From Eledone cirrhosa (Eukaryota), in NCBI GenBank assembly GCA_964016885.1, contig CAXHJY010000001.1, forward strand, positions 496,001 through 560,000: a DNA stretch of 64,000 nucleotides, read 5' to 3'. The position numbers were made by a program, and so were the translations under genes. This document shows, one piece after another, positions 475 through 49,195 of this stretch. The stretch's first letter is position 1; each line of letters opens with the position of its first letter. The notes below the pieces were generated by a model, which was given only the letters and a program-made list of their open reading frames with translations, was not told the origin of the DNA and did not search any database.

Positions 475-612
475 CCTGTCACATTGGTAAATTTGGAGCT
501 AACTGTTAACACACATGCCACTGTGCTGATAATAACAGGTGTAACAAACAGACAGGTATGTGTTCTAGTGGAGGATGTACTGCTGGTTATGAAGGTAGCA
601 ACTGTCAGACAG
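475..612 (+). pseudogene. EGF-module exon 1 (138 nt, phase 1-1) with in-frame TAA at 507-509
   Basis: acag| acceptor and |gtaagt donor; reads CHIGKFGANC*HTCHCADNNRCNKQTGMCSSGGCTAGYEGSNCQT. Confidence 0.85.
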
Positions 613-656
613 GTAAGTGGTGTAGTATAGCTTTGTTTCTAACATGATATATTGAG

Positions 657-768
657 TCAAGATGACAGTAGGTGTAACACACAGCTAGGTGTAACACAGA
701 GACAGGTGTGTGTTTTAGTGGAAAGTGTAGTGCTGGTTATGAAGGTAACACCTGTGAGACAGGTAGAT
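657..768 (+). pseudogene. Intronic partial copy of the 3' half of an EGF exon
   Basis: gagacaggtgtgtgttttagtggaaagtgtagtgctggttatgaaggtaacacctgtgagacaggtag resembles the exon 3' half; a homologous copy follows exon 2 at 2446-2530. Confidence 0.75.
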
Positions 769-789
769 TTAAACTGTTTTGGAGCTACA

Positions 790-950
790 ATCATCATCAT
801 CATCATTTTACGTCTGCTTTCCCCTGCTTACAAGGGTGGGACGGAAACTGATTCTGGCTTGATTTCTACAGCTGGATGCCCTTCCTAACACCAGCCTCAT
901 TTACAGTGAGTATTGGGTGTTTTTTGCCGTGGCACCTCCAGGACCACTTT
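790..950 (-). mobile_element. 3' tail fragment of the RTE-type LINE family
   Basis: (cat)n tail and ttgatttctacagctggatgcccttcctaacacc are shared with the LINE 3' UTR at 22165-22420. Confidence 0.75.
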
Positions 951-969
951 GCAGTGGAATGATATTGAC

Positions 970-1125
970 CCCAGTCCCTATCATCTCATTTCTACAGCTG
1001 AGTAAACTGGAGCAATGTGAAATAAAGTGTCTTGCTCAAGGAAACAACACATCACCCGGTCTGAGAATTGAACTCACAACCTTTCGATTGCAAGGCCAAT
1101 GCTCTAACTTCTAAGCTATGTGCTT
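970..1125 (-). mobile_element. tRNA-derived SINE with a CORE-like segment
   Basis: Reverse strand has a B-box-like gagttcaattc followed by ccttgagcaagacacttt; related copies near 8330-8445, 16550-16680, 18930-19030 and 51890-52020. Confidence 0.65.
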
Positions 1126-1295
1126 ACAATATAAAGGGGATATTATAGCCTCATGAATATATAGTATAACATTGGTATGGAGTGTAGAGAATCGGCAAGT
1201 ATATAGACATAATATCGATGTTACGGAAATCATATAGATTGTATAGATATAGTATGGATTATATATAGTTTAGGTCATACCACTGGAGTATAAAA

Positions 1296-2020
1296 TAATA
1301 TAATAATGAAATTATTGTGTACAGTGCTCAGGTGCACTACAACTCATCAAAGGTGCATGTATAGTACATAGAATAATGTTTAAATGTCAGGAAAAGGAAC
1401 AGTGTATGAGTCATGAAATACATGTGTGCGTGTGTATGGAAGGGGGGACATCAGGTGCAGTGTTGACGAATCTCAGGAAGCATAGAGGTTTTAAAGGATG
1501 CAGTGTCTCGACAGCTAACAACTGATGCAGGTAGTTTATTCCATGGAGGTTTTAAAGGATGCAGTGTCTCGACAGCTAACAACTGATGCAGGTAGTTTAT
1601 TCCATGGAGGTTGTAAAGGATGTAGTGTCTCGACAGCTAACAACTGATGCAAGTAGTTTGTTCCATGGAGGTTGTAAAGGATGTAGTGTCTCGACAGCTA
1701 ACAACTGATGCAGGTAGTTTGTTCCATGGAGGTTTTAAAGGATGCAGTGTCTCGACAGCTAACAACTGATGCAGGTAGTTTGTTCCATGGAGGTTTTAAA
1801 GGATGTAGTGTCTCGACAGCTAACAACTGATGCAGGCAGTTTGTTCCATGGAGGTTTTAAAGGATGCAGTGTCTCGACAGCTAACAACTGATGCAGGTAG
1901 TTTGTTCCATGCTTCAGCAACTCGGAGCTTGAAAAAATGTTTCCGAAAGTCATGGGAGCTGTGCTGTTTTCTGACTTTGTAGGCATATCCATGGGTGTTA
2001 GAAACATGGAAATTAAGATG
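1296..2020 (-). mobile_element. CR1-type LINE 3' fragment containing ~7 tandem copies of a 61-bp unit (~1484-1910)
   Basis: Encodes KQHSSHDFRKHFFKLRVAEAWNKLPASVVSCRDTASFKTSM, matching the ORF end of the LINE at 13968-16309; (ATT)n tail. Confidence 0.9.
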
Positions 2021-2275
2021 ATACAAATATAGTTCAGATGATATAGATATAGTATAGATGACAACGCTATAATATAGATGATAGAATTGTGGTAGCTATC
2101 CCTTTCATCCCAACAGGGTTGATAAAATGAAGTACCAGTCACACACTGGGGTCGATTTAATTGATTTTCTCCTCCCCTAAAATTGCTGGCCTTGTGCCTA
2201 AATCAGAAAGCATTATCTTGTATAGTGTTATATGTTGTTGTTATTGTCATTGTTCTCATATTTTTATTTCCACAG

Positions 2276-2413
2276 TCTGTAGAAATGGAAAATTTGGAGC
2301 CAACTGTGGCAACACATGTCACTGTGTTGACAACAGTAAATGTAACAAACAGACAGGTGTGTGTTCTAGAGGAGGATGTACTGCTGGTTATGAAGGTAGC
2401 AACTGTCAGCCAG
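2276..2413 (+). CDS. EGF-module exon 2 (138 nt, open)
   Basis: cacag| acceptor and |gtaagc donor; CRNGKFGANCGNTCHCVDNSKCNKQTGVCSRGGCTAGYEGSNCQP. Confidence 0.88.
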
Positions 2414-2525
2414 GTAAGCTTTGTTTGCTACTTAATATATTTAGTCAAGATGATAGTAGGTGTAAGACAGAGACAGGTGTGTGTTCCAGTGGAAGGTGTG
2501 TTCCTGGTTATAAGGTATCATCTAT

Positions 2526-5500
2526 CAGACAGGTGTGTTACAGTACATGGTGTGGCCTGGTTATAAGGTAGCACCTGTCAGACAAGTGTGTTACAGTAGA
2601 TGGTGAAGTCCTGGTTATAAGGTAGCACCTGTCAGACAGGTGTGTTACAGTAGATGGTGTGGTCCTGGTTATAAGGTAGCAGCTGTCAGACACGTGTGTT
2701 ACAGTAGATGGTGTGATCCTGGTTATAAGGTATCATCTATCAGACAGGTGTGTTACAGTAGATGGTGTGGTCCTGGTTATAAGGTAGCACCTGTCAGACA
2801 GGTGTGTTACAGTAGATGGTGTGGTCCTGGTTATAAGGTAGCAGCTGTCAGACAGGTGTGTTACAGTAGATGGTGTGGTCCTGGTTATAAAGTAGCACCT
2901 GTCAGACAGGTGTGTTACAGTAGATGGTGTGGTCCTGGTTATAAGGTAGCACCTGTCAGACAGGTGTGTTACAGTAGATGGTGTGGTCCTGGTTATAAGG
3001 TAGCAGCTGTCAGACAGGTGTGTTACAGTAGATGGTGTGGTCCTGGTTATAAAGTAGCACCTGTCAGACAGGTGTGTTACAGTAGATGGTGAAGTCCTGG
3101 TTATAAGGTAGCACCTGTCAGACAGGTGTGTTACAGTAGATGGTGTGGTCCTGGTTATAAGGTAGCAGCTGTCAGACAGGTGTGTTACAGTAGATGGTGT
3201 GGTCCTGGTTATAAAGTAGCACCTGTCAGACAGGTGTGTTACAGTAGATGGTGTGGTCCTGGTTATAAGGTAGCACCTGTCAGACAGGTGTGTTACAGTA
3301 GATGGTGTGGTCCTGGTTATAAGGTAGCACCTGTCAGACAGGTGTGTTACAGTAGATGGTGTGGTCCTGGTTATAAGGTATCATCTATCAGACAGGTGTG
3401 TTACAGTAGATGGTGTGGTCCTGGTTATAAGGTAGCACCTGTCAGACAGGTGTGTTACAGTAGATGGTGAAGTCCTGGTTATAAGGTAGCACCTGTCAGA
3501 CAGGTGTGTTACAGTAGATGGTGTGGTCCTGGTTATAAGGTAGCACCTGTCAGACATGTGTGTTACAGTAGATGGTGTGGTCCTGGTTATAAGGTATCAT
3601 CTATCAGACAGGTGTGTTACAGTAGATGGTGTGGTCCTGGTTATAAGGTATCATCTATCAGACAGGTGTGTTACAGTAGATGGTGTGGTCCTGGTTATAA
3701 GGTAGCAGCTGTCAGACAGGTGTGTTACAGTAGATGGTGTGGTCCTGGTTATAAAGTAGCACCTGTCAGACAGGTGTGTTACAGTAGATGGTGAGGTCCT
3801 GGTTATAAGGTAGCACCTGTCAGACAGGTGTGTTACAGTAGATGGTGTGGTCCTGGTTATAAGGTAGCACCTGTCAGACAGGTGTGTTACAGTAGATGGT
3901 GTGGTCCTGGTTATAAGGTAGCACCTGTCAGACACGTGTGTTACAGTAGATGGTGTGATCCTGGTTATAAGGTATCATCTATCAGACAGGTGTGTTACAG
4001 TAGATGGTGTGGTCCTGGTTATAAGGTAGCACCTGTCAGACAGGTGTGTTACAGTAGATGGTGAAGTCCTGGTTATAAGGTAGCACCTGTCAGACAGGTG
4101 TGTTACAGTAGATTGTGTGGTCCTGGTTATAAGGTAGCAGCTGTCAGACAGGTGTGTTACAGTAGATGGTGTGGTCCTGGTTATAAAGTAGCACCTGTCA
4201 GACAGGTGTGTTACAGTAGATGGTGAAGTCCTGGTTATAAGGTAGCACCTGTCAGACAGGTGTGTTACAGTAGATGGTGTGGTCCTGGTTATAATGTAGC
4301 ACCTGTCAGACAGGTGTGTTACAGTAGATGGTGTGGTCCTGGTTATATGGTAGCAGCTGTCAGACAGGTGTGTTACAGTAGATGGTGTGATCCTGGTTAT
4401 AAGGTAGCACCTGTCAGACAGGTGTGTTACAGTAGATGGTGTGGTCCTGGTTATAAGGTATCATCTATCAGACAGGTGTGTTACAGTAGATGGTGTGGTC
4501 CTGGTTATAATGTAGCACCTGTCAGACAGGCGTGTTACAGTAGATGGTGTGGTCCTGGTTATATGGTAGCAGCTGTCAGACAGGTGTGTTACAGTAGATG
4601 GTGTGGTCCTGGTTATAAGGTAGCACCTGTCAGACAGGTGTGTTACAGTAGATGGTGTGGTCCTGGTTATAATGTAGCACCTGTCAGACAGGTGTGTTAC
4701 AGTAGATGGTGTGGTCCTGGTTATAAGGTAGCACCTGTCAGACAGGTGTGTTACAGTAGATGGTGTGGTCCTGGTTATAAAGTAGCACCTGTCAGACAGG
4801 TGTGTTACAGTAGATGGTGAAGTCCTGGTTATAAGGTAGCACCTGTCAGACAGGTGTGTTACAGTAGATGCTGTGGTCCTGGTTATAATGTAGCACCTGT
4901 CAGACAGGTGTGTTACAGTAGATGGTGTCGTCCTGGTTATATGGTAGCAGCTGTCAGACAGGTGTGTTACAGTAGATGGTGTGATCCTGGTTATAAGGTA
5001 GCACCTGTCAGACAGGTGTGTTACAGTAGATGGTGTGGTCCTGGTTATAAGGTATCATCTATCAGACAGGTGTGTTACAGTAGATGGTGTGGTCCTGGTT
5101 ATAATGTAGCACCTGTCAGACAGGTGTGTTACAGTAGATGGTGTGCTCCTGGTTATATGGTAGCAGCTGTCAGACAGGTGTGTTACAGTAGATGGTGTGG
5201 TCCTGGTTATAAGGTAGCACCTGTCAGACAGGTGTGTTACAGTAGATGGTGTGGTCCTGGTTATAAGGTAGCACCTGTCAGACAGTTGTGTTACAGTAGA
5301 TGGTGTGGTCCTGGTTATAAGGTAGCAGCTGTCAGACAGGTGTGTTACAGTAGATGGTGTGGTCCTGGTTATATGGTAGTACCTGTCAGACAGGCGTGTT
5401 ACAGTAGATGGTGTGGTCCTGGTTATATGGTAGCAGCTGTCAGACAGGTGTGTTACAGTAGATGGTGTGGTCCTGGTTATAAGGTAGCACCTGTCAGACA

Positions 5501-7128
5501 GGTGTGTTACAGTAGATGGTGTGGTCCTGGTTATAAGGTAGCACCTGTCAGACAGTTGTGTTACAGTAGATGGTGTGGTCCTGGTTATAAGGTAGCACCT
5601 GTCAGACAGGTGTGTTACAGTAGATGGTGTGGTCCTGGTTATAAAGTAGCACCTGTCAGACAGGTGTGTTACAGTAGATGGTGAAGTCCTGGTTATAAGG
5701 TAGCACCTGTCAGACAGGTGTGTTACAGTAGATGCTGTGGTCCTGGTTATAATGTAGCACCTGTCAGACAGGTGTGTTACAGTAGATGGTGTCGTCCTGG
5801 TTATATGGTAGCAGCTGTCAGACAGGTGTGTTAGAGTAGATGGTGTGATCCTGGTTATAAGGTAGCACCTGTCAGACAGGTGTGTTACAGTAGATGGTGT
5901 GGTCCTGGTTATAAGGTATCATCTATCAGACAGGTGTGTTACAGTAGATGGTGTGGTCCTGGTTATAATGTAGCACCTGTCAGACAGGTGTGTTACAGTA
6001 GATGGTGTGCTCCTGGTTATATGGTAGCAGCTGTCAGACAGGTGTGTTACAGTAGATGGTGTGGTCCTGGTTATAAGGTAGCACCTGTCAGACAGGTGTG
6101 TTACAGTAGATGGTGTGGTCCTGGTTATAAGGTAGCACCTGTCAGACAGTTGTGTTACAGTAGATGGTGTGGTCCTGGTTATAAGGTAGCAGCTGTCAGA
6201 CAGGTGTGTTACAGTAGATGGTGTGGTCCTGGTTATATGGTAGTACCTGTCAGACAGTTGTGTTACAGTAGATGGTGTGGTCCTGGTTATAAGGTAGCAG
6301 CTGTCAGACAGGTGTGTTACAGTAGATGGTGTGGTCCTGGTTATAAGGTATCATCTATCAGACAAGTGTGTTACAGTAGATAGTGTAGTCCTGGTTATAA
6401 GGTAGCAGCTGTCAGACAGGTGTGTTACAGTAGATGGTGTGGTCCTGGTTATAAGGTATCATCTTTCAGACAGGTGTGTTACAGTAGATGGTGTGGTCCT
6501 GGTTATAAGGTAGCAGCTGTCAGACAGGTGTGTTACAGTAGATGGTGTGGTCCTGGTTATTAGGTAGCACCTGTCAGACAGGTGTGTTACAGTAGATGGT
6601 GTGGTCCTGGTTATAAGGTAGCACATGTCAGACAGGTGTCTTACAGTAGATGCTGTGGTCCTGGTTATAAGGTATCATCTATCAGACAGGTGTGTTACAG
6701 TAGAAGGTGTGGTCCTGGTTATAAGGTAGCAGCTGTCAGACAGGTGTGTTACAGTAGATGGTGTGATCCTGGTTATAAGGTAGCACCTGTCAGACAGGTG
6801 TGTTACAGTAGATGGTGTTGTCCTGGTTATAAGGTATCATCTATCAGACAAGTGTGTTACAGTAGATAGTGTAGTCCTGGTTATAAGGTAGCACCTGTCA
6901 GACAGGTGTGTTACAGTAGATGGTGTGGTCCTGGTTATAAGGTATCATCTGTCAGACAGGTGTGTTACAGTAGATGGTGTGGTCCTGGTTATAAGGTAGC
7001 ACCTGTCAGACACGTGTGTTACAGTAGATGGTGTGGTCCTGGTTATAAGGTATCATCTGTCAGACAGGTGTGTTACAGTAGATGGTGTGGTCCTGGTTAT
7101 AAGGTATCATCTGTCAGACACGTGTGTG
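2526..7128 (+). repeat. 54-bp minisatellite (~85 copies) derived from the EGF exon 3' half
   Basis: Unit cagacaggtgtgttacagtagatggtgtggtcctggttataaggtagcacctgt aligns to the 57-nt exon segment with a 2-nt and a 1-nt deletion. Confidence 0.95.
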
Positions 7129-7354
7129 CTCTTTTGTAGTTCTATTTCTTTAGAAAATCTACCAGACAAATGGATGAATGTCCTCTTCAGTCATGATGAA
7201 ATGTATCCAGTAACATCTGAGAGGTCAGTAGCTCCGATTAAGTTCTGAGTCGGTCTCTGTTGACACATCCCACTCTTGGTTACAGGGGAAGTGAATGTTA
7301 AATGTTCATCATGAGGAAGATGTGAGTAGCAGGGGCAGTAGAGTTACAGATTAA

Positions 7355-7566
7355 CCCTTTAGCATTTACACTACTTCATATACACTATTATATTTTCACA
7401 GTAAAGGCTTTATCTCATATAATTATCTCACATAATATCAAATCTATGAGATTTTGATATTATCTATTTTGAGAACAATACCTTAACATAAGTATGAGCA
7501 GCCAGTTATGGCTGGTTTGAACAGAAAGAATTCAGAGAATTGTGGCCGGTTTAAATTCTAAAGGTT
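7355..7566. mobile_element. piggyBac-like MITE (TTAA-flanked, CCCTTT...AAAGGG ends), right end decayed
   Basis: ttaa|ccctttagcatt start; internal sequence shared with the copies at 12558, 21964 and 63354. Confidence 0.7.
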
Positions 7567-7934
7567 TTAATGGGTTGTGATTTTGAGTTCTTTTTTAAAA
7601 CGGTATTCAAATCCCACCAAAATCAACTTTTTCTGTCATACTTTTGGAGTAGATAGAATAATATAGCAGTGAAATACCATGCAATGGACTAGCATCCTGT
7701 CCAGGTGTGGGGAATACAGTGGACTCTGCTCAGTGTGATACCTACCGACAGTTAGAAGGACTGGGCTGTTGAATATACAAAAACAAAAAAATGTCTAAAG
7801 TGTGTCTCGAGTGCTGAGGGTCATCAGGCCAGTGCTATCTATGGCATGAAGTGACTTAAAATACAAAACTTCCCCTGGACAGGGCACCAGTCCATTCCAA
7901 GGTTAAATCACCAGCTATTACTGGCACTGATCTC

Positions 7935-8127
7935 CAAGCTTCCTGAAATTCGCCAACACTACACCTGATATCCCTCCTCCATACACACGTACATATGTTT
8001 ATCATGACTCATACACTGTTCATTTTCCTGACATTTGTTCATTATTCTATGTGCTTTACATGCACCTTTGATGAGTTATAGTGCACCTGAGCACTGTACA
8101 CAATAATTTCACTATTATTATTATTAT
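7935..8127 (+). mobile_element. CR1-type LINE 3' tail
   Basis: gcttcctgaaattcgccaacactacacctga...gtgcacctgagcactgtacacaataatttc followed by (att)n. Confidence 0.8.
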
Positions 8128-8131
8128 ACTG

Positions 8132-8328
8132 GAGCGGTGGATTGTCAGTATTGGTAGAGAGTCGGACGCCATGCTTTGAAGCATAGAGTTACGTCCCTTT
8201 ATGATCTGAGTTCAAATCCCACCAAGGTTAACTTTGCATTTCATCCTTACGGGGTCGATAAAATATAGTACCAGTAATGTACTGGGCAATTGCTGGCCTT
8301 GTGTCAAAAGTAGAAACAATTATTATTA
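8132..8328 (+). mobile_element. tRNA-derived SINE (~190 bp family)
   Basis: B box gagttcaaatcc followed by ctttgc(a/c)tttcatccttacggggtcgataaaat..agtaccag; at least 9 copies in the window. Confidence 0.8.
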
Positions 8329-8489
8329 TACTGGAGCAACATGAATGGAAATACTTTTGCTCAAGAACACAACACACAACCTAGTTGAGGAATAGAACTC
8401 ACAACATTATGATTGTAAGTCCAACACCCTTACCACAAGGCCACACAAATACACACCAAAATATATATTTGTTATTGATTGATTTGTAG

Positions 8490-8627
8490 GATGTAAGAGA
8501 GGAAAATTTGGACCAAACTGTTGAAACATGTGTCATTGTGCTGACAAGAGTAAATGTAAGCCACAGACTGGTAGCTGCTCTAATGGAGGATGTGCTCCTG
8601 GATATGAAGGTGGCAACTGTCAGACAG
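8490..8627 (+). pseudogene. EGF-module exon 3 (138 nt) with in-frame TGA at 8522-8524
   Basis: tgtag| acceptor and |gtaagt donor; CKRGKFGPNC*NMCHCADKSKCKPQTGSCSNGGCAPGYEGGNCQT. Confidence 0.85.
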
Positions 8628-11686: not shown

Positions 11687-11824
11687 AGTGTAGAAGTGGT
11701 AAATTTGGTGACAACTGTATTAACTCATGTCACTGTGCCAACAACAGCAAGTGTGACCCCATCACAGGTGTATGTTCCAGTGGTGGCTGTGAAGCTGGCT
11801 ATCAAGGTAGCAATTGTCAGACAG
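11687..11824 (+). CDS. EGF-module exon 4 (138 nt, open)
   Basis: acacag| acceptor and |gtgagt donor; CRSGKFGDNCINSCHCANNSKCDPITGVCSSGGCEAGYQGSNCQT. Confidence 0.88.
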
Positions 11825-12777: not shown

Positions 12778-13187
12778 TTAATAATGATTTCTTAATTTTG
12801 GAGTAAAGAGAAAGTCAGTTGATTATATCTACCCCAGTATTTAACTGGTACATTATTTTATCAAGCTTGTAAAAATGACATTCAAGTTTGACCTGAGCAA
12901 GATTTGAACTCAGAACTCAGAAGTTCTGCAAAGCATTTCATCCAACAAACACTCCAACAGTTCTTCCCATTTCTTTCCCTTTTACAACAAAAGGATGACA
13001 TTGTTCATCTAGAAAACACACGTGGTGTTTATGAGGCTGTTTGCTGGCAAACAAACTGAATATTAATGATATTATAATACTATTATAACATTATTGTTAT
13101 CCAGTGTATTACTAATAAAGTACCAGTAATACACTGGGATAATTGCTAGCCTTGTGCAAAAAGTAGAAATAATTATTATTGAATCGC

Positions 13188-13385
13188 GAGGGTGGTGGAT
13201 TGGCAGTATCGGTAGAGCGTCGGATGCCATGCTTTGCAGCATAGAGTTATGGTTCTTTACGGTCTGAGTTCAAATCCCGCCAAGGTTAACTTTGCCTTTC
13301 GTCCTTACGGGGTCGATAAAATAAAGTACCAGTAATGCACTGGGGTAATTGCTGGCCTTGTGTCAAAAGTCGAAACAATTCTTAT
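13188..13385 (+). mobile_element. tRNA-derived SINE (parent A of the duplication junction)
   Basis: A-box-like tggcagtatcgg and B box gagttcaaatcc. Confidence 0.8.
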
Positions 13386-13426
13386 TCACTCATGAATAAA
13401 TAATAAATAATAGCTCTATATTTCAG

Positions 13427-13564
13427 AGTGCTCCAGTGGCAAGTTTGGTAAAGATTGTAGCTATAGCTGTCACTGCTATGACAATAGCACGTGTAACCCT
13501 AAATCTGGTACCTGTTCGAGTGGTGGGTGTACACCTGGCTATAAAGGTAACAACTGTCAAACAG
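13427..13564 (+). CDS. EGF-module exon 5 (138 nt, open)
   Basis: tttcag| acceptor and |gtgagt donor; CSSGKFGKDCSYSCHCYDNSTCNPKSGTCSSGGCTPGYKGNNCQT. Confidence 0.88.
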
Positions 13565-13851
13565 GTGAGTGAAATGAAAGAAGCTAATTACTCTGTGCAA
13601 CATATATGAATTCTTGTTTTATCTCTCAAAACTTTAGGTTGTTCTTTATTAGTCATTCCCAAAGTGGGATCCATGGAACCCAAGGGTTCTGCAAAGGAAT
13701 GTCTGGGGTTCCATGAAAAAAAGGTAGAGAAGTATATTTATATTCAAACCATATAAAAATATGAGACTTTGGGATTCCGCCAGAAGTTTCTGAAAAAAAA
13801 AGGGTTTGCTTTTTTTTTTATTAACAAACAATGTTTTTGTTTCTTTGAAAG

Positions 13852-16330
13852 TCTGCCAGAATGGTAGATTTGGCAGCAACTGTGAAGGTATATGTCACTG
13901 TGTAGACAGCAACAAATGTGACTCAGTGACAGGAATATGTTCTGACGGAAGATGTGTTGCTGGTTTTATAATAATAATGAAATTATTGTGTACAGTGCTC
14001 AGGTGCACTACAACTCATCAAAGGTGCATGTATAGTACATAGAATAATGTACAAATGTCAGGAAAATAAACAGTGTATGAGTCATGATATAATAACAATA
14101 ACAATAATGAAATATTGTGCACAGTGCCCAGGTGCCCCACAACCCATCAAAAAAGTGCATGTACAGTACATAGGGCAATGCACAAACATCAGTAAAATGA
14201 ACAGTGCACGAGTCATGATACACACATGTGTGCATGTGTATGGAAGGGGCACATCAGGTGTAGTTTTGGCGTATTTCGGGAAGCATGAGTGTCTTAAAGG
14301 ATGCAGTGTCTCGGCAGCTAACAATTGACGCAGGCAGTTTGTTCCATGCTTCAGCAACTCTGAGCGTGAAAAAATGTCTGCGAAAGTCATGGGAGCTGTG
14401 CTGTTTTCTTATCTTGTAGGCATGTCCACGTGTGTTAGACACATGGAGATCAAAGAGGCGCTCAGGGTTGCAGTTGGCGAGATGGTTAAAAACTTTGTGG
14501 GTATTCACCAAGTCCATTGCCAGACGTCGGAGCTTCAATGAATCCATGCCCAGGGAAGCAAGGCGTTCAGAGTATGGTAGGTGTCTGATGGAGAGTATGC
14601 GCTTGGTTGCACGTCTCTGAACAGTTTCCAGGAGGTCAATGTTCCGAGCAAGATAGGGGTTCCAGACTGATGATGCGAATTCCAAGTGTGGTCGCACCAT
14701 AGCTGTATACAGTTTTAAATAGATGGCTGGAGAGCGGCTAACAAAGATCCTGCTGAGTGATGCCAAGACACCCTCGGCCTTCTTGACAATCTTAGAGACA
14801 TGCTTTGTCCAACGGAAATCGTTGCTGACAGTAATGCCCAGGTCACGTTCACAAGAGGACTTTTTGATGTCAGTGTTGTGGAGGGAGTATGTGGACGCTG
14901 GATTTTTCCTTCCAAAATGCATGGTGGTACACTTGTCCACAGCCAGCTTCAGTTGCCAGTCTGTGATCCATTGCTACATTGTGTCCAGGTCTGATTGTAG
15001 GAAAGAGTTGTAAATTTCAGGATCAGTCCTTTTGATTTCAAGGTACAGCTTGATGTCATCTGCATATTTTAGTACCGTGGCATTCTGTAAGTTGGCATCT
15101 ATGTCATTAATATATGCCACAAACAAAAGAGGACCAAGAACAGATCCCTGTGGTACACCAGATGACATCTCATATGGTGAAGAATGCTGTCCTAGAACCG
15201 TGACTACTTCCTTTCGGCTGAGAATGAAGGATTTCAGCCAGTCGAAAAGATCATCCCTCACACCCATTGCAGAGAGTTTTGCCATAAGTCTTTTGTGTGG
15301 CACAGAATTAAAAGCCTTAGCAAAGTCAAGATAAACAAAATCCACCCATGAGCCGCTGTCAGTGATCCGGGTGATGTCCTCAAGGAACTCGATAAGCTGA
15401 TCACAGCAGCTGGAGTTAGGGATAAATCCAAACTGTGAGGGCCGGATGAGGCTGTGAGAGCTCCAGAAGTTCCAAAGTGTTTCTCTGACACAGGATTCCA
15501 TCAGTTTGGCCATACAGCTAGTAAGACTGACTGGACGATAGTTGACAGGTGACATGCGGTTGCCCTTTTTGAACAGGGGAATGACACTGGCAGTTTTCCA
15601 CTGCTCCGGAGTAGCACCATTGCTGAGACAGTATTGAAAGAAAAAAGAAAGCTGGCGCAAAAGGAAATCCCCGCCACGTTTGAGAAGCAGGTATGTCACA
15701 CCATCAAGACCAGGGGAGGCATAGTTGCGCTTATTCTTAAGGTGACGTCGCAACATTGCAGGTGTAAATTCCATAGTTGTTATGGAATTTGATGTTAGAG
15801 ATGGTGAAGATGGTACATTCTGGTTTTCAACAGTAAAAATACTTGCATAGCACTCAGCAATGAGTTCTGCGCATTCCTTGGGATCGTCAGTGATCTGGCT
15901 TGTGTGGGGATTGCGAAGAGGACCAACTGGAGAGTGAGGTCTCTGCTTTGAATGAACATATTTCCAGAACACCTTACTGTCAGGATTGGTTGCGATGCAC
16001 TGTTCAAATTCAAGCACTGCCTTCTTTGTCACTTGCTTGAGATGGTTAGAAGATTTATTCCACTTTTTTCTGTTGGCATCTGATCTATGCAGTTTATATT
16101 CCCGTTCAGCGTTCCGACGTTCTTTCCTGGCAAGTCGGACCGCTGAAGTTTCCCAGATTGCACTTTTGGGGTGGTTATTTTTCCGCTTCTGTGGCACTGA
16201 TGCTGCACACGCTATCCATATTGAGTCCAGGATGCTCTGGAGTATAGAGTTCACATCTCCAGAGTTATACATCTCATGCCAGTTTGGGCGCTGTAGCTCA
16301 GTGCAGTACAAGGAAGAAACTGCCAAAATG
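13852..16330 (+). pseudogene. EGF-module exon 6, split by a CR1 LINE (exon parts 13852-13967 and 16310-16330)
   Basis: Nearly identical to intact exon 8 up to gctggtttt; resumes as aaggaagaaactgccaaaatg|gtgagt after the LINE. Confidence 0.92.
13968..16309 (-). mobile_element. 5'-truncated CR1-clade non-LTR retrotransposon; RT reading frame broken by one stop (14974-14976)
   Basis: RT motifs YLDFAKAF, SGVPQGSVLGP, YADD; CR1-type C-terminus VRPHLEFASSVWNP, LETVQRRATK, FFTLRVAEAWNKLP; (ATT)n tail. Confidence 0.92.
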
Positions 16331-17057
16331 GTGAGTAAAACTAAATATCGAATTTCCATTCTTTCTTTTTTTTTTATGGGAGTGAGGGGGGGGGCAGATT
16401 TGTAAATTAAAATAAAAGCTGGTGAATTGACAGTATCTTTTTCAATATCTTTTATTCACCTCTTTATAATATGTAAGGACACTGTGTCAGTTGTTTACAG
16501 TTTAAACTAGTTATGAGATCAATGAACTGTCATCTCTATCTAACACTAACACAAGTGGTAAAGCTGTTGGATTTACAATCATAATGTTGTGGGTTTGATT
16601 CCTGGACTTGGATGTGCATTGCGTTCTTAAGCAAAACATTCTTGCGTAGTATACTCAGTTGAAAATGAGTACCAGCAATTGCTGGGGGATTTTAAATTCC
16701 ATCCTGCACAGGACACCTGTCCTGTGCAGGATGGAATTCTGTACTCTCAGTTGCTTCACACCATGGAAACCGAGATAAGCACATTCCACCCTTCTCTCAG
16801 GCATTGCATAACTAGGACTACACTATTTAATGTGTCCTTTCCTTTTTATCATACTAATCTATAATTTGGCTGTTACTTGTTCTGAGTCTAAAGTCTGTCT
16901 CAAGCCTGGATGCTAATCAGGCCAGTGTTTACCTTGGTTTCCATGGTGTTAAATGACTGACAGTAAACAATTCCAGCCTGGACAGGACACCAGTCCATTG
17001 CAGAGAAACCCCCCACCAATTGTTGATACTCATTTCCAACTGAGTATACTGAGTATA

Positions 17058-17252
17058 TAGGCAGTGAATTGGCAGAGTCGTTAGAACATCAGATAGAATG
17101 CTTTGTGGTATTCGTTCCAACTCTCTGCTCTCTGAGTTCAAATCCCGCTGAGGTCAACTTTGCCTTTCATCCTTACGGGGTCGATAAAATAAAGTACCAG
17201 TAATGCACTGGGGTAATTGCTGGCCTTGTGTCAAAAGTCGAAACAATTCTTA
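17058..17252 (+). mobile_element. Chimeric SINE marking a tandem-duplication junction
   Basis: 5' part is identical to the SINE at 18590; 3' part is identical to the SINE at 13188-13385; the switch falls within 17170-17174. Confidence 0.88.
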
Positions 17253-17294
17253 TTCACTCATGAATAAATAATAAATAATAGCTCTATATTTCAG

Positions 17295-17432
17295 AGTGCT
17301 CCAGTGGCAAGTTTGGTAAAGATTGTAGCTATAGCTGTCACTGCTATGACAATAGCACGTGTAACCCTAAATCTGGTACCTGTTCGAGTGGTGGGTGTAC
17401 ACCTGGCTATAAAGGTAACAACTGTCAAACAG
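17295..17432 (+). CDS. EGF-module exon 7 (duplicate of exon 5, open)
   Basis: tttcag| acceptor and |gtgagt donor; same translation as exon 5. Confidence 0.88.
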
Positions 17433-17719
17433 GTGAGTGAAATGAAAGAAGCTAATTACTCTGTGCAACATATATGAATTCTTGTTTTATCTCTCAAAAC
17501 TTTAGGTTGTTCTTTATTAGTCATTCCCAAAGTGGGATCCATGGAACCCAAGGGTTCTGCAAAGGAATGTCTGGGGTTCCATGACAAAAAGGTAGAGAAG
17601 TATATTTATATTCAAACCATATAAAAATATGAGACTTTGGGATTCCGCCAGAAGTTTCTGAAAAAAAAAGGGTTTGCTTTTTTTTTTATTAACAAACAAT
17701 GTTTTTGTTTCTTTGAAAG

Positions 17720-17857
17720 TCTGTCAGAATGGTAGATTTGGCAGCAACTGTGAAGGTATATGTCACTGTGTAGACAGCAACAAATGTGACTCAGTGACAG
17801 GAATATGTTCTGACGGAAGATGTGTTGCTGGTTTTGAAGGAAGAAACTGCCAAAATG
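17720..17857 (+). CDS. EGF-module exon 8 (intact duplicate of exon 6)
   Basis: gaaag| acceptor and |gtgagt donor; CQNGRFGSNCEGICHCVDSNKCDSVTGICSDGRCVAGFEGRNCQN. Confidence 0.88.
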
Positions 17858-19335
17858 GTGAGTAAAACTAAATATCGAATTTCCATTCTTTCTTTTTTAT
17901 GGGAGTGAGGGGGGGGGGGGGGGGGGGGGGGCAGATTTGTAAATTAAAATAAAAGCTGGTGAATTGACAGTATCTTTTTCAATATCTTTTATTCACCTCT
18001 TTATAATATGTAAGGACACTGTGTCAGTTGTTTACAGTTTAAACTAGTTATGAGGTCAATGAACTGTCATCTCTATCTAACACAAGTGGTAAAGCTGTTG
18101 GATTTACAATCATAATGTTGTGGGTTTGATTCCTGGACTTGGATGTGCATTGCGTTCTTAAGCAAAACATTCTTGCGTAGTATACTCAGTTGAAAATGAG
18201 TACCAGCAATTGCTGGGGGATTTTAAATTCCATCCTGCACAGGACACCTGTCCTGTGCAGGATGGAATTCTGTACTCTCAGTTGCTTCACACCATGGAAA
18301 CCGAGATAAGCACATTCCACCCTTCTCTCAGGCATTGCATAACTAGGACTACACTATTTAATGTGTCCTTTCCTTTTTATCATACTAATCTATAATTTGG
18401 CTGTTACTTGTTCTGAGTCTAAAGTCTGTCTCAAGCCTGGATGCTAATCAGGCCAGTGTTTACCTTGGTTTCCATGGTGTTAAGTGACTGACAGTAAACA
18501 ATTCCAGCCTGGACAGGACACCAGTCCATTGCAGAGAAAACTCCCCAGCAATTGTTGATACTCATTTCCAACTGAGTATACTGAGTATATAGGCAGTGAA
18601 TTGGCAGAGTCGTTAGAACATCAGATAGAATGCTTTGTGGTATTCGTTCCAACTCTCTGCTCTCTGAGTTCAAATCCCGCTGAGGTCAACTTTGCCTTTC
18701 ATCCTTTTGATGTCAATAAAAAAGTACCAGTCTAGTACTGGGGTCGATTCTTCTTCTATATCTCTTTCTCATTTCCTCTCTCTCACTTTCTATCTTTCTC
18801 TGGAAGAAATCTGCTGTATTCAGGCCTGGACAGGGATGGGCTCCGCCTGGCTTAAAATACCCAAGAAATGATGTCTGTTAATACGGCACCTCTACGACTC
18901 TGTCAGGAGTTACAGGACCATTCATACATACTGAGTATAATGTTTTGCTCAAGAACATAACACACAACCCAGTCCAAGAATGAAACCCAGAACATGATTG
19001 TAAGTTTAACACCATTTACACTTGTGTTAGTGTTAAATAGAGCATGAAAGTTTATTAGCTTTGTTGCAATTAGTTGAGACACAAAATAACTGGCACAGTG
19101 TCCTTTCCTATTGTAAGAGGTGAATAAAAGAGTTCACACACACATACACATAAACACACACATGCACTCTCACTCTAAAACACACAAACACACTCACACA
19201 CATACTCTTTCACACTCTTAAATGCTCAAATGTACTCACACACTAAAACACACAAACACACTCACATTAAAACACACAAATGCACTCACTCACACACACT
19301 TAAACACAGTAATGTAAATGTTAAATAGATTAAGG

Positions 19336-20850: not shown

Positions 20851-20988
20851 TGTGTAAAGCTGGTTATTTTGGTGTCCATTGTTCAAATCCCTGTAAATGC
20901 AAGGACAGTGCAAACTGTAACCCTAAAACTGGACACTGTCCAAACAACAAGTGTCTACCTGGTTTTACTGGTCATGACTGCCAAGCTT
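20851..20988 (+). CDS. EGF-module exon 9 (138 nt, open)
   Basis: taacag| acceptor and weak t|gttagt donor; CKAGYFGVHCSNPCKCKDSANCNPKTGHCPNNKCLPGFTGHDCQA. Confidence 0.85.
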
Positions 20989-21963: not shown

Positions 21964-24660
21964 CCCTTTAGCATTTAAACTGGCCATATCTGACCAGAAT
22001 CCTCTCACCTCTTTCTGTTGAAACCGGCCATAACTGGCCACTCATACTGACATTAAGGTATTCTTCTCAAAATAGATAAAATCAAAATCTCATAGATTCG
22101 ACATTATGAGATACTTATGTGAGGTAAAGCCTTTACCATGAAAATACAATAGTATATATAGAGTCATCATCATCATCAACGTTTTACGTCCGTTCTTCCA
22201 CGCTAGCATGGGTTAGACGGGTTGTCCTGTTGTGGGCAGTGTCTGGTCGGCTGACTATGCTTTGCTCATACAGGAACTGATTTGGCTTGATTTCTACAGC
22301 TGGATGCCCTTCCTAACACCAACCTCATTTACAGTGAGTGCTGGGTGCTTTTTCGTGTTGCCTACACGTCCACTTTACAGTGTGGGCTGGGTGCTTTTTG
22401 CCGTGGCACCTCCACGACCACCTTGAAGTGGGGGGTGTGGGGGCTTATTGTCTATATGCATCAGCTTGTACCCATGGGAGGTCGGGTACTCTGTATTTCT
22501 GCGAGACGCCAGAGGTCACGGTCATGTGTCATCGCCTTTGAGAGGTGGAATTGGGTAAGGTCGGTTTTTATCACCTCATCCCAGGTCATCTTGGGTCTCC
22601 CCACTCCGCGGTTTCCATCGACTTCTAGTGCTCTGCACCTTTTTATGCAGCTGTCATCCTTCATACGCATCACATGTCCATACCAACGCAACTGCCTCTC
22701 CTGCACACAGCATTTGATTCCTCTTATGCTCAGTCTCTCTCTCAATTCATTTATGCTTTGTCGTTCGCGTATATTACTGTTACACATCCATCGGAGCATG
22801 CAGGCTTCGTTTCTCTCTAATCTACATAAGTCTTCCACCTTCAGCGCCCAGGTCTCACTACCATGCAACATTGCTGTTCGGATACACGCATCATACAGTC
22901 TGCCTTTCATTTTGAGGGAAAAGCCTTTTGCAGCTAGCAGTGGTAGTAGTTCCCTAAGCTTCTTCCATCCCGTTCTTACCCTAGTTATTGTACTTTCTGA
23001 ACACCCACCTCCGCTGCTAATTCGGTCACCTAGGTAGCAGAAGCTGTCTACTCTTTCTACAGAGCCCTCCGAGAGATTGGTGGTACTTGTTTCCTGTGGC
23101 TTTTTGCTGCGTGCTGTCCCAGCACAGCTGCTGCATGTGAAGCCTACATTCTTAATTAAGCTTCCTGAGATCCCGCTACATCTCTTGTGTACCCATTGTT
23201 TGCATTTGGGGCAGGGAATGGAGTTCCTACCTACACCTTTCCTACATACTGAGCAAGGCCATTTCCCTGAGGGGATCTGGGTTCTGTTTTCTCGTCTACT
23301 TACAAGGACCTGAGTCTTTATCATGTTGACTTTGAGACCCTTTCTTTCTAGTCCCTGCTTCCAAGTTTGGAATTTCTTCTCTAGCTCTACCATAGATTCA
23401 GCTATAAGTGCGAGGTCATCAGCATACAGGAGTTCCCATGGGCATCCAGTCTTAAACTCCTCCGTTATTGCCTGCATGACTATGATGAACAGGAGGGGGC
23501 TAAGAACAGAGCCCTGGTGGACCCCAACCTGTACGCTAAATTCCTCGCTATACTCATTGCTAATCCTAACTTTGCTGACTGCTCCCCTATACATGGCTTG
23601 TACCGCTTTCACAAGCCATTCATCTACTCCTAGTTTTCTAAGAGCCCATCAGATTACAGCACGTGGAACTCTGTCAAAGGCTTTCTCGAGATCGACAAAT
23701 GGCAGGTAGAGTGGCTTGCTTTTAGCTAGGTACTTTTCCTGTACTGCCTCACAAGGAAGAGGGCATCAGTGGTGCCTCTTCCTGGTACAAACCCAAATTG
23801 CATCTCATCTAGTTTCACCCGGTCCCTAATCAACTGTGCTATAACTCTTTCTGTTACTTTCATGACCTGGTCCATCAGCTTTATACCTCTATAGTTTCCT
23901 CTATCTAGTGCATCACCTTTACCTTTGTAGCAGTTGACAATAATGCTACTGCACCAATCTTTTGGTATGACACCTTCTAGTATTACCTGGTTAACAATAC
24001 GTGTGGTTATAGTGTGACCTACAGACCCAGATGCCTTCAGCATCTCAGCAGCTATACCCGATGGACCGGTTGCCTTCCCCATCTTCATATCTTTGATTGC
24101 CTTACTTACTACGCTGCTGCTGACTTGTACTGCTGGCCCCTCTATAGGGTCTACTTGGGGTAGGGTCTCTTCTTCTCATGCTTTCTCCTCATTTAGTAAT
24201 CTATCATAATGACTCTTCCATGCATCTTTCTTCTCAGCACTTGTGAGGGCAAGCTCACCTTTATCATTCCGGATACACTTCTCTCCAATGACATCACAAT
24301 TCTCTCTGACACACTGCCTCGCAATCTTGAACACCTCCTGTTTCTGGTCCTTACATTGCAAAACATGCTTGAATTTTCTATCCTCTGCTTCCCTCCTACC
24401 TAAGTATACTTGTCGCCTAGCTTCCCTCTTGTTCTCTATGTAATTTACCCTGCTCCCCCCGTTCTTCCATTCTTTCCATGCCTGTCTCTTGGCCTTAACT
24501 GCCTCATATACCTTATTGTTCCACCACCAAGTCACTCTCCTCCTGCTTGAGGTCTTACTCCAGCCACAGACCTCATCCGTCGCCTCTAGTAAGTTATTTT
24601 TTAGGAACTCCCAGTTCTCTTCTACATTGAATGTCTATGAGTAATGTAAATGCTAAAGGG
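21964..24660. mobile_element. piggyBac-like MITE split by an RTE LINE (parts 21964-22164 and 24639-24660)
   Basis: ...atatatagagt | LINE | gagtaatgtaaatgctaaaggg; an uninterrupted end is seen at 12740-12781. Confidence 0.75.
22165..24636 (-). mobile_element. 5'-truncated RTE-type LINE with a stop and a frameshift
   Basis: GVHQGSVLSPLLF, LLYADDL, Cys cluster WPCSVCRKGVGRNSIPCPKCKQWVHKRCSG; (GAT)n tail. Confidence 0.92.
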
Positions 24661-24872: not shown

Positions 24873-25010
24873 TCTGTCCAAGCAATACTTTTGGGTCTAA
24901 CTGTCAAAAGGTTTGTCATTGTGAAGAAAGTAAATACTGCAACAGAACCAATGGTGTTTGTGAAGAGGGCAACGGTGAACCAGGCTATATAGGAACTGAT
25001 TGTCAAACTG
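24873..25010 (+). CDS. EGF-module exon 10 (138 nt, open, Cys7 replaced by Gly)
   Basis: cccag| acceptor and |gttggt donor; CPSNTFGSNCQKVCHCEESKYCNRTNGVCEEGNGEPGYIGTDCQT. Confidence 0.8.
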
Positions 25011-36329: not shown

Positions 36330-39300
36330 ATGAATGTAGGTACCATGAATGTAGGGACCTTAAAAGGCCTCTCAAACGAGGTTGTAGAAATGCTTGAACG
36401 TAAGGAGGTTGATGTCTGCTGCATCCAAGAGACCAGGTGGAGGGGCAGGTCTGCTAGATTCATTGTGGGTAAAAAACGATGCTATAAGCTTTTCTGGGTG
36501 GGAAATGACAATGGGCTAGGTGGGGTAGGAATCATGTTAGCAGAAAAATGGGTGGATAAGATAATAGACGTAAATAGAGTGAATGACAGAATAATTAAAA
36601 TAAGACTTGTTCTAAATAGAACTACTGTGACGATAATATCTGCGTACGCGCCCCAATCCGGACTGCCTGGCGCTATAAAGGACACTTTCTATGAGACACT
36701 GATGCTCACTACCTCCCAAATAACCGACAGTGACTATATAATTATTGCTGGCGACCTAAATGGTCACGTTTGACAACATTGTGACGGCTATGATGAAATC
36801 CATGGAGGCTATGGGTTTGGTACTAGAAATGAGGAAGGTTCCAGAATCCTGGAATTCTGTGACGCAAATAACCTAACAATCTGTAACACTAACTTCAAAA
36901 AACGAGACAATCACCTGATCAGCTATAGATCCGGGGAACACACAAGCCAGGTAGATTATATCCTTACCAGAAGACGTGACAGAGTGACTGTTGTAAACAC
37001 TAAATCCCTCCCCCATGAAGAATGCACCTCCCAACGTAGACTGATAATTAGCGACCTCATAGTCAGGACGAGACGTACTCGACAGCAGAAGAGGACTATC
37101 CTCAAGAGAAAAATATGGAAGCTAAAGGACCCCACAGCCAGAAATAAATTTCAAAGCATATTACTTGATGCTTTCGACAGTAAGGAAGAACATTTAGAGT
37201 CGGACAATATAGAGGAACAGTGGGAATTCCTGAAAGCAAACCTGCTGCTGGCGGCAGATGAAGTCTGTGGCCGGAACAGGCCTATAGGCAGGAGGAGAGT
37301 AACATGGTGGTGGAACAGTAAGGTGGAGGAGTCAATTAAGGCCAAAAAGCAGGCTTGGAAAATATGGCGGGATGGGGGAAGTAGAGAAGACTATCAAGTG
37401 GCCAGGAGGGAAGCTAGGAGACAAGTGTACTTCGCAAGAAGGGAAGCAGAGGAAAGAAAGTTCAAGCATGTTCTACAACGCGAGGACCAAAAACGTGAGG
37501 TGTTCAGGATTGCTAGGCAATGTGTCAAGGAAAACCGTTTTATTGTTGGGGAGAAGTGTGTACTAAATGATGATGGCGTACTCGCCATCACTGACGCTGA
37601 TAAGAAGGTCGCTTGGAAGTGTCACTACGAGAGGCTACTAAATGAGGAGAATAAATGGGAGAAGGATAGTTTCCCCCAGACCGATCCAATAGAGGGACCA
37701 GCAGTGTTAGTTGAAGGTAGTATAATAAGTAAGGCAAGCAAAGATATGAAGACGGGTAAGGCGGCTGGGCCTTCGGAAATAGTTGCTGAGATGCTGAAGG
37801 CCTCTAGAACGGTGGGACACACCATGGTCACCCGGATAGTAAACCAAGTCATACAGAATGGGGTTGTTCCGAAGGACTGGCGTAGCAGCATCATCATTAA
37901 CTGTTACAAGGGTAAAGGAGACGCCCTAGATAGGGGTAATTATAGAGGCATTAAATTAATCGACCAGGTCATGAAGGTCACGGAAAAAGTAATAGCGCAA
38001 CTAATGAGAGAGAGAATCGATCTAGATGAAATGCAGTTCGGGTTTATGTCAGGCAAAAGTACCACAGACGCTCTTTTCATTGTACGACAACTACAGGAGA
38101 AGTACCTAGCTAAAAGTAAACCCCTATACTTAGCCTTTGTCGACTTGGAGAAAGCCTTCGACAGAGTCCCCCGTTCCATTATATGGTGGGCTCTTAGAAA
38201 ACTAGGTGTTGACGAATGGCTTGTGAGAGCTATACAAGCCATGTATAAAGAAACAGTGAGCAAGGTTAGAATTAACAACGAATATAGTGAAGAGTTTAGC
38301 GTAAAAGTTGGTGTCCATCAGGGCTCTGTTCTTAGCCCCCTACTATTCATTATTGCTCTTCAGGCTATAACAGAGGAGTTCAAGACCGGCTGCCCATGGG
38401 AACTCCTATACGCAGATGACCTAACGCTCATAGCTGAATCAATGGCCGAGCTAGAGAAGAAATTCCAAACATGGAAGCACGGCCTAGAATCAAAAGGCCT
38501 TAAAATTAACATGGCTAAGACTAAAGTTCTAGTTTGTAGGAAAGAAAATAAGGCGCCAGTCCCTTCCGGGAAATGGCCATGCTCAGTGTGTAGAAAAGGC
38601 GTAGGTAGAAACTCCATTTTATGTCCCAAATGCAAAGTATGGGTGCATAAAAGATGTAGTGGGATCACAGGTAAGCTAACGAAGAACACAGATTTTACAT
38701 GTGGCCGGTGCTCTGGTGCAATAAGTAGCAGCAAGTGCCCACAAAATACTAGCTCTTTCAACTGCGCAGAAGGTTCTATAGAAATAGTGGACAGCTTCCG
38801 TTACCTGGGTGACAAAATCAGCAGTGGGGGAGGGTGCTCTGAAAGTACAGTAGCTAGAGTCCGAACTGGATGGAAAAAGTTCAGAGAGCTTATACCACTA
38901 TTAGCCGCTAAAGGGTTCTCCCAAAAAATGAAAGGCAGGTTGTATGATGCCTGCATACGAACAGCAATGTTGCATGGCAGTGAGACCTGGGCATTGTGTG
39001 CAGAGGATATACGCAGACTAGAGAGGAACGAAGCTTGCATGCTCCGCTGGATGTGTAATAGTAATATACGCGAACGGCAAAGCATAAACCAACTAAGGAA
39101 AAAATTAGAAATAAGAGGGATCAGATGTTGTTTACTCGAGAGAAGGCTACATTGGTATGGTCGCGTGATGCGCATGAAAGACGACAGCTGTATAGCAAAG
39201 TGCAGGGCAATAAAAATAGACGGTAGCCACGGAGTAGGCAGACCCAGAAAAACCTGGGACGAGCTGATAAATTCCGACCTCACACACTTACACCTCTCCA

Positions 39301-39719
39301 AGACAATGTCACTGGACCGAGAGCTTTGGCGGTACTCAGTAATAGAGAAGACCCGCGTTACCTAAATACAAAGTAAAACCTACTACAGTCAGTAGGCATC
39401 TCTAACAAAATACACCCCCGTCCCACCACCACCACCCCATCCACACCGCCCCTTTCAATGTAAAGTTATGTTGGTGCCACAAAATCCAGGCCGAAACAAA
39501 TGAGGTCGTGTAGGTGTCACGACAAAAAAAACACACAGTCCACGCTGTAATGTGACCGTGTAGGCAACACGGTAAAAACCTCCCAGTCCACACTGTAAAT
39601 GTGGTTGGTGTTAGGAAGGGCATCCAGCTGTAGAAAACCCGCCAGACAGTCCTATGCGAGCAAGACAACCACTCTTGCCTCAAGTGGGAAAACTCCTGTC
39701 CAAACCCATGCAAGCATGA
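36330..39719 (+). mobile_element. Near full-length RTE-type LINE (APE endonuclease + RT) with one in-frame TGA at 36771-36773
   Basis: MNVGTL, CIQETRW, SAYAPQ, GDLNGHV*, DYIL, LLYADDL; the 36285 and 36984 ORFs share a frame and I found no other stop between them. Confidence 0.93.
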
Positions 39720-48656: not shown

Positions 48657-49195
48657 TCTATATATTAATTTCAACAATGTCAATATTCCGTGTGTCATAA
48701 TTCTCGATTATCATTGGTTCATAGGTTTCTAACGACTCCGCCCACCTCAACGACGCCAAACTTAAATTAATATGTATAATGCCAATGAGAGAGTGAGAGG
48801 CGAGAGAGAGGCAAAGTGAACGCTGTGTTGGATACACTATGTATATGTGTCAGTGTAGAGACGTGTGTGTGTGTGATGTGTGTGGAAATAAGAGGGGGAG
48901 TAAAGCAATAACTATTAACATGTGTGCGTGTGTATGTACGTGCGCGTATGTTTATGTATGTGTGCGTGCGTGCAGCGTTCCACAGAAAGTAAAAACTATC
49001 AACATGTGTGAGTGTGTGCGTGTGTAAGTTTGTGTGCGTGTATGTGTGTATACGTGCGGCGTTCCACAATCGCCACGCAGTTTATCTGTCTGTGTGCCTG
49101 TCTGTCAGTCTAACATACAGAGTTGTGAAGGGAGTAAATAGGGACCTTTTCTTTTATCATCTGTTTACCCGGGCGAAGCTGGGTACGTCAGCTCG
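48657..49195 (+). mobile_element. Non-autonomous Helitron derivative, head-to-tail with the large element
   Basis: Starts TCTATATATTAA directly after CTAG; homologous to 42837-43250 plus the 3' hairpin; ends CTCG. Confidence 0.88.

Follow-up and report, generated by a model that had tools for sequence, protein, structure and literature searches.

The window is a 64,000-nucleotide (nt) stretch of Eledone cirrhosa DNA (G000:C16:496,001-560,000), and its first 28 kb hold eleven copies of a 138-nt exon that encodes an epidermal growth factor (EGF)-type repeat with eight cysteines. All eleven exons are phase 1-1, and their Pfam matches are weak, to EGF_STAB1-2 and laminin-EGF. Two of them, both on the forward strand, contain a premature stop codon. 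The subject of this analysis is the origin of these two stops and of the receptor-gene fragment in which they lie.

Two EGF-type exons with a stop at the same codon

Exon A (475..612; acceptor catattacag, donor gtaagt) carries TAA at 507..509, and exon B (8490..8627; acceptor tgatttgtag, donor gtaagt) carries TGA at 8522..8524. In both exons, 32 nt precede the stop, which occupies codon 11 immediately 3' of the second cysteine, and all eight cysteines are retained in each exon. A preliminary description of the window had reported these two stops at a matching codon, which was confirmed, and its reading of codon 11 in the remaining nine exons (GGC, ATT, AGC, GAA, AGC, GAA, TCA, CAA, and CAG) was also correct. 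The high variability that it ascribed to this codon holds between exon types, but among copies of one exon the codon is nearly fixed.

Paralogous copies and age of the stops

Exon A has 25 copies in the genome at 97–100% identity, and exon B has 25 at 98–100%. They are distributed as 14 on contig C20, 6 on C27, 3 on C16, 1 on C22, and 1 on C23; the 40 best candidates were scored per genome search, and copy counts are therefore lower bounds. Codon 11 of exon A is AAA (Lys) in 24 of the 25 copies. In exon B, it is CGA (Arg) in 23 copies, CAA in one, and TGA in the window copy. Thus, all 24 other copies have a sense codon at this position in exon A, and the same is true of all 24 in exon B. The nearest copies differ from the window by 8–9 of 1999 nt around exon A and by 6–8 of 1441 nt around exon B. 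Because even these copies still carry sense codons, both stops are private and arose by single-base changes within the last ~0.4% of divergence, namely AAA>TAA in exon A and a CpG transition, CGA>TGA, in exon B.

A shared ancestral stop, one of the options raised in the preliminary description, is refuted by these data, as the other copies carry sense codons and each private stop derives from a different ancestral codon. The same description had listed private stops and sense codons in related genes among the observations that would speak against a functional role, and sense codons were found in 24/24 other copies per exon. The data support its proposal of two independent nonsense hits and its guess of CGA>TGA, but the ancestral codons are AAA and CGA rather than CAA/GAA or TCA.

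The parent receptor gene

One copy, that on C22, is complete at either end and represents the parent gene. It has 54 EGF-like exon matches, of which 50 are canonical, none contains a stop, one is frameshifted, and three are apparently of different length. Its exons are ordered as an N-terminal EGF-like exon (C22 ~1,663,980, an extra exon relative to the duplicates), an EGF exon, a PF22633-like lectin exon, about 50 eight-cysteine EGF-type exons, and a transmembrane exon, the last being a hydrophobic exon at ~1,788,775, 3' of the last EGF exon. An eight-cysteine EGF-type array followed by a transmembrane segment is therefore present in the parent. The lectin exon matches PF22633 with E 5e-5 and 24.2 bits, under the cut-off of 27.8, and it aligns to the lectin region of proteins P0001 and P0005. 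A search for a signal-peptide exon of the parent gave no convincing candidate, and no phosphatase exon was found in C22:1,785,300-1,868,000, the 83 kb that follow the last EGF exon.

A profile built from 13 exons has its best match in P0001 of Octopus sinensis, which combines a galactose-binding F5/8-type-C domain, EGF repeats, a transmembrane segment, and a tyrosine phosphatase domain. This match agrees with a coleoid, and probably octopod, host. A protein search with a single exon returned no match, and the lectin exon returned one match, an unnamed protein of 208 amino acids (P0121). In a profile search of representatives, the best matches looked up were amphioxus and bivalve proteins, which are no closer than P0001. 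Individually, the parent exons are at most ~70% identical to named proteins. The molluscan lectin-EGF proteins P0001 and P0005 are probably relatives of the parent, with no orthology implied.

In the parent, about 18 EGF exons that closely resemble one another also form a local run 3' of exon B (C22:1,713,000-1,726,000). In most duplicates, this run is absent or is represented by a few, partly broken copies, which points to rapid change of exon number in the intact gene. One parent EGF exon, at C22:1,761,363, has a long glycine run within its repeat.

The amplified fragment

The window lies inside a unit of ~135 kb that holds only the middle of the lectin-EGF-transmembrane receptor gene; units measure ~100–140 kb. 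The likeness of the C16 units to C22 starts at C22:1,669,018 and ends at ~1,745,100, which corresponds to ~28.4–28.9 kb of the window (approximate 3' breakpoint at 28350..28930). Beyond this point, the parent continues with more EGF exons and the transmembrane exon. Breakpoints were mapped on C16 only, and those of the remaining copies were deduced from single-copy end exons. The N-terminal exon and the last EGF exon of the parent have one genome match each, whereas middle exons were found at 25, 27, and 34 places. Since the end exons are single-copy and the middle exons multi-copy, the 24 other copies are duplicates of an internal piece of ~76 kb. Introns align to the parent at 96–98%.

No transmembrane or phosphatase exon was found in a search after the last EGF exon of the unit. 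In the window, the DNA 3' of the breakpoint consists of reverse-transcriptase elements and a Helitron. The window copy is cut further at its 5' end, where it adjoins a satellite at C16:444,801. The lectin exon was located at 27 places in the genome, but at none upstream of this copy on its contig. Large simple satellite blocks, which directly adjoin the copy at C16 ~415,000-444,800 and recur in stretches sampled further left, account for the greater part of the left-hand sequence sampled on this contig.

The unit has been amplified about 24 times, and its copies are ~1–2% apart. They lie mostly head to tail, with 14 in one tandem array, at 3.5–5.3 Mb on C20, 13.1–15.5 Mb on C27, 445–800 kb on C16, and ~29.0 Mb on C23. 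Shorter pieces with the last EGF exon occur on C18, C19, and C26. It was also considered whether C16 is a haplotig, that is, the other allele of the C27 array. The C16 and C27 copies match at 99–99.95% over much of the unit, but their 5' breakpoints differ.

The Helitron of the window (42837-48656) was tried and rejected as the vehicle of the amplicon. Dispersed copies on C19 run ~3 kb beyond its 3' CTAG at 48656, to 51692, and the captured DNA is not bounded by the Helitron 3' terminus. The element has its own ends and the dispersed copies reach beyond them, so that it is probably carried in the unit as a passenger.

Decay and neutrality of the duplicates

The exon catalogue covers the three C16 units over their full length and, for the 22 copies on other contigs, 50 kb surrounding each. 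Among 398 exon-like matches, 335 are full-length and in frame and 61 are frameshifted or truncated; two first exons of greater length were counted in neither class. An AG or GT splice dinucleotide is missing from nine in-frame exons. Five distinct changes replace a cysteine with another residue, one of which is common to 10 copies. Stops occur in six exons and result from four distinct nonsense events, at codons 1, 11, 11, and 14. At least one lesion (frameshift or truncation, splice, cysteine, or stop) is present in all 25 copies within the surveyed stretch, that of the parent being its one frameshifted exon. In the window copy, a TGA at codon 1, a frameshifted exon, and a lost donor site all precede position 507.

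The neutrality test left out the parent and used the 17 exon groups with five or more members, with 3 small groups skipped. The 49 distinct variants of the duplicates comprise 38 missense, 8 silent, and 3 nonsense changes, compared with a neutral expectation of 35.3, 11.4, and 2.3, respectively. In this small sample, there is no sign of purifying selection on the duplicate exons.

Chance and the shared codon

The mutation spectrum was taken from 623 changes at 36,989 sites in the downstream DNA of three copies. The CpG>T class reached 0.035 per site, compared with 0.0025–0.012 for the other classes. With these weights, codon 11 takes 24% of the nonsense opportunity in exon B, where CGA is the main hot spot, and 4% in exon A, where it is AAA. 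Given one stop in each of the two exons, the probability that both fall on the same codon is 0.051.

In a neutral simulation, all 57 variants of the 20 groups were redrawn at random with their carriers kept. It yielded a mean of 2.6 stops, and four or more with a probability of 0.27. Some copy carried two or more stops in 45% of the runs, and two stops shared a codon in 13%. The shared codon and the shared copy together are a real but modest coincidence, and one that was singled out post hoc from a genome of 3 Gb.

Interpretation of the stops

These findings suggest, with a probability of about 0.86, that the stops are two independent, recent, and neutral nonsense mutations that struck a duplicated and probably non-functional internal portion of a receptor gene. 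The proposed course is as follows. The internal ~76-kb piece of the parent (G000:C22 ~1,669,000-1,745,100) would have been copied and joined to ~43 kb of transposon-rich DNA. Amplification of the joined piece, as a ~100–140-kb unit, would then have produced the 24 other copies, which are spread over four contigs. These copies are observed, and the order of copying, joining, and amplification is reconstructed from them. Because the piece lacks the first coding exon found in the parent, its last EGF exons, and its transmembrane exon, it probably makes no receptor and would be free of selection. The exons would then have accumulated the frameshifts, splice-site losses, cysteine losses, and stops that are observed. 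In exon B, codon 11 was presumably struck because its CGA is the main nonsense hot spot of the exon, and the second strike, in exon A, would be a coincidence.

Several results weigh against this explanation. The strongest is that the shared codon and the shared copy arose together in just 4% of neutral simulations, or 8% given four stops; this figure is too weak to call for a mechanism. In addition, two of the six private exon variants of the window copy are stops, whereas ~5% per change is expected. With 49 variants, the neutrality test also has limited power. The exons are symmetric (phase 1-1), so broken ones could be skipped in frame. The genome searches scored the best candidates only, and the copy counts are minimum values for this reason.

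Alternative explanations

The best-surviving alternative, although improbable, is that the assembly consensus is wrong at one of the stops or at both; C16 is a small (810 kb) and repeat-rich contig. Both differences are private single bases, and most private exon variants fall in units 1 and 3 of C16 (6 each, compared with 3 or fewer elsewhere), but the C16 counts are inflated by the full-length survey as against 50 kb for the other copies. The contigs of runs X1-X3 have A at 507, and that of X1 has C at 8522. However, about 25 copies are merged in these contigs and rare variants are lost from them, so that absence cannot be read from them. Compared with the C27 copy in non-repetitive 2-kb tiles, the window copy reaches an identity of up to 99.95%. 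CGA>TGA belongs to the commonest real mutation class here, and in another copy the same CpG has mutated on the other strand, giving CAA. Restriction-site-associated DNA (RAD) reads are uninformative on polymorphism at both sites: five reads of X11 cover 507, all with A but with at least 9 other differences, and 8522 is covered by one read of X11 (C) and by none of X12 or X13.

It is less probable still that the duplicated units are transcribed, for instance from transposon promoters, into soluble receptor fragments. The stop exons would in that case be spliced out, serve as poison exons, or determine how long a truncated product is. Many exons keep AG/GT and an open frame (335/398 in frame), but this is predicted by youth alone in copies that are ~1–2% apart. 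The symmetric exon phase permits in-frame skipping, and a Drosophila study reportedly describes duplicated gene fragments that are transcribed again (10.64898/2026.08.09.743762). On the other hand, silent changes are not in excess, the window copy lacks the 5' lectin exon and has the three earlier lesions 5' of 507, and each stop is present in 1/25 copies. With the Drosophila case as the nearest precedent for the re-use of such fragments, a more specific version can be framed, and it is equally doubtful. The amplified fragment would be a transcribed family of secreted decoys of the parent that lack its anchor, with the codon-11 stops as length switches in one member. The members may differ in the length of the EGF arm through exon gain, loss, and skipping and through private stops. 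If true, such expressed decoys would constitute a new route to receptor diversification in octopus.

A functional switch at the stops was among the options in the preliminary description, in the form of editing-gated or readthrough exons, poison exons, or a switch to a secreted form. None of these is supported, because the exons sit in a duplicated fragment without the parent's first, last EGF, and transmembrane exons, and because the duplicates show no sign of purifying selection. It is very unlikely that A-to-I editing (UAA>UII, UGA>UGI, read as Trp) or readthrough gates exons A and B. The host is apparently an octopod, and stop-loss editing (UAG>UGG) is treated as a real class in coleoid editing studies (PMC8382921). 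Nevertheless, the stops are private and young, and UAA requires two edits. The product would be Trp rather than the ancestral Lys or Arg, and Trp occupies this position in 0/335 in-frame exons and in 5/1274 motifs of 249 homologues. Local folding is no better than that of shuffled sequences (z -0.13 and +2.04 for the 400-nt and 360-nt surroundings), and among the 25 longest of 1316 inverted repeats, to which the check for distant-intron pairing was confined, none overlaps exon A or B. ADAR enzymes disfavour a 5' G neighbour, as in UGA. The contexts TAA-C and TGA-A are not of the leaky TGA-C type.

A poison cassette exon coupled to nonsense-mediated decay was rejected as well, as the stops are private and their host is a fragment, which leaves no conserved stop exon in a complete gene. 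Selenocysteine was set aside, TAA being one of the two stops and Arg the residue that the TGA replaces, with no search made for a selenocysteine insertion sequence (SECIS). Finally, a short gene conversion that copied one mutation between exons A and B would explain why both changes place T at one exon position after AACTGT in one gene copy of an array in which exon duplication and mosaicism are common, but it is hardly credible, as only 7 bases are identical at the site (AACTGT and the new T), the flanking bases differ so that the tract would span at most 7 bases, no neighbouring difference was transferred, and such short tracts are not a usual product of conversion.

Other features of the window

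The remaining EGF-type exons and exon-derived repeats all lie on the forward strand. A decayed partial duplicate of the 3' half of an EGF exon is located at 687..765 (query 68-146 aligned, 86%), and an open EGF-type exon is located at 2276..2413. They are followed by a 54-bp tandem repeat of 86 copies (2479..7127), the unit of which resembles, judging from the printed sequence, the 3' end of an EGF exon up to the donor site; here, an exon end has apparently become a satellite. Further open exons lie at 11687..11824, 17720..17857, and 20851..20988. A two-exon block is duplicated internally at 13130-17860, and C23 carries three such blocks. The first copy of this duplication is represented by an open exon at 13427..13564 and the second by one at 17295..17432. 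The second exon of the first copy, at 13852..13967, is truncated after 116 nt and has no donor site, an equivalent class of lesion being found 7 times in 6 copies. The exon at 24873..25010 has a Cys34>Gly change that is common to two other copies, and the last EGF-type exon of the duplicated fragment is found at 27981..28118.

Four reverse-transcriptase elements are present, at 22461-24634 (-), 29271-31281 (-), 33714-35396 (-), and 36216-39365 (+). Two of them have a C-terminal PHD finger, one has C2H2 fingers, and one has a GIY-YIG domain. The GIY-YIG-bearing element is flanked by a 317-nt inverted repeat (33437-33753 / 35366-35682). An open frame of 366 amino acids at 40098-41198 (+) has no Pfam match at E 0.01. 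It is likely part of a retroelement, because tblastn aligns a protein with a reverse transcriptase to a region that overlaps its 3' end.

The Helitron contains RepHel reading frames at 43937-47047 and 47141-47689. It begins with TC and ends with a hairpin and CTAG, which we take to be the end motifs of Helitrons. A short copy with similar ends follows directly at 48657-49195, and near-identical solo copies occur on C1, C3, C12, and C22.

Significance and comparison with known systems

As found, the two stops would represent ordinary pseudogene decay rather than an RNA-editing switch, and they matter little in themselves. They do provide a caution: when stops line up across repeated exons, the paralogues must be consulted as a control before anyone proposes an editing switch. 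The amplicon is the more interesting by-product, a young expansion of ~3 Mb of an internal receptor-gene fragment. It will mislead gene annotation and read mapping in this genome, A>G calls included. A literature search covering listings and the starts of abstracts revealed no account of this locus, which is no proof that it is undescribed.

The parent resembles molluscan receptors with an F5/8-type-C domain and EGF repeats (MEGF6/10/11-like or receptor-type protein tyrosine phosphatase-like; Octopus sinensis P0001 and P0005) in its exon order. In contrast to the phosphatase-like members, it has no phosphatase exon within 83 kb after its last EGF exon. The stops share with stop-loss A-to-I editing in coleoids (PMC8382921) an in-frame stop with an editable A in an otherwise intact coding sequence. 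They differ in being UAA and UGA instead of UAG, in occurring in 1/25 copies, in having no local duplex, in lying in a gene fragment, and in the absence of Trp from the family at this position. The account of Drosophila "tinkering loci" (10.64898/2026.08.09.743762) likewise describes duplicated gene fragments that lie in transposon-rich DNA and spread to further sites, whereas here a single fragment of one gene has been amplified as a block.

The closest known system is the unprocessed (duplicated) pseudogene fragment in a segmental or tandem amplicon. As in such fragments, an intact parent exists, introns and splice sites are kept in the copy, both ends of the parent and with them essential parts are missing, and nonsense, frameshift, and splice lesions occur together with variants that fit neutral evolution and show no sign of purifying selection. 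The present case differs from the usual one in its high copy number, with 24 duplicates of which 14 form one tandem array, and in the large size of its unit.

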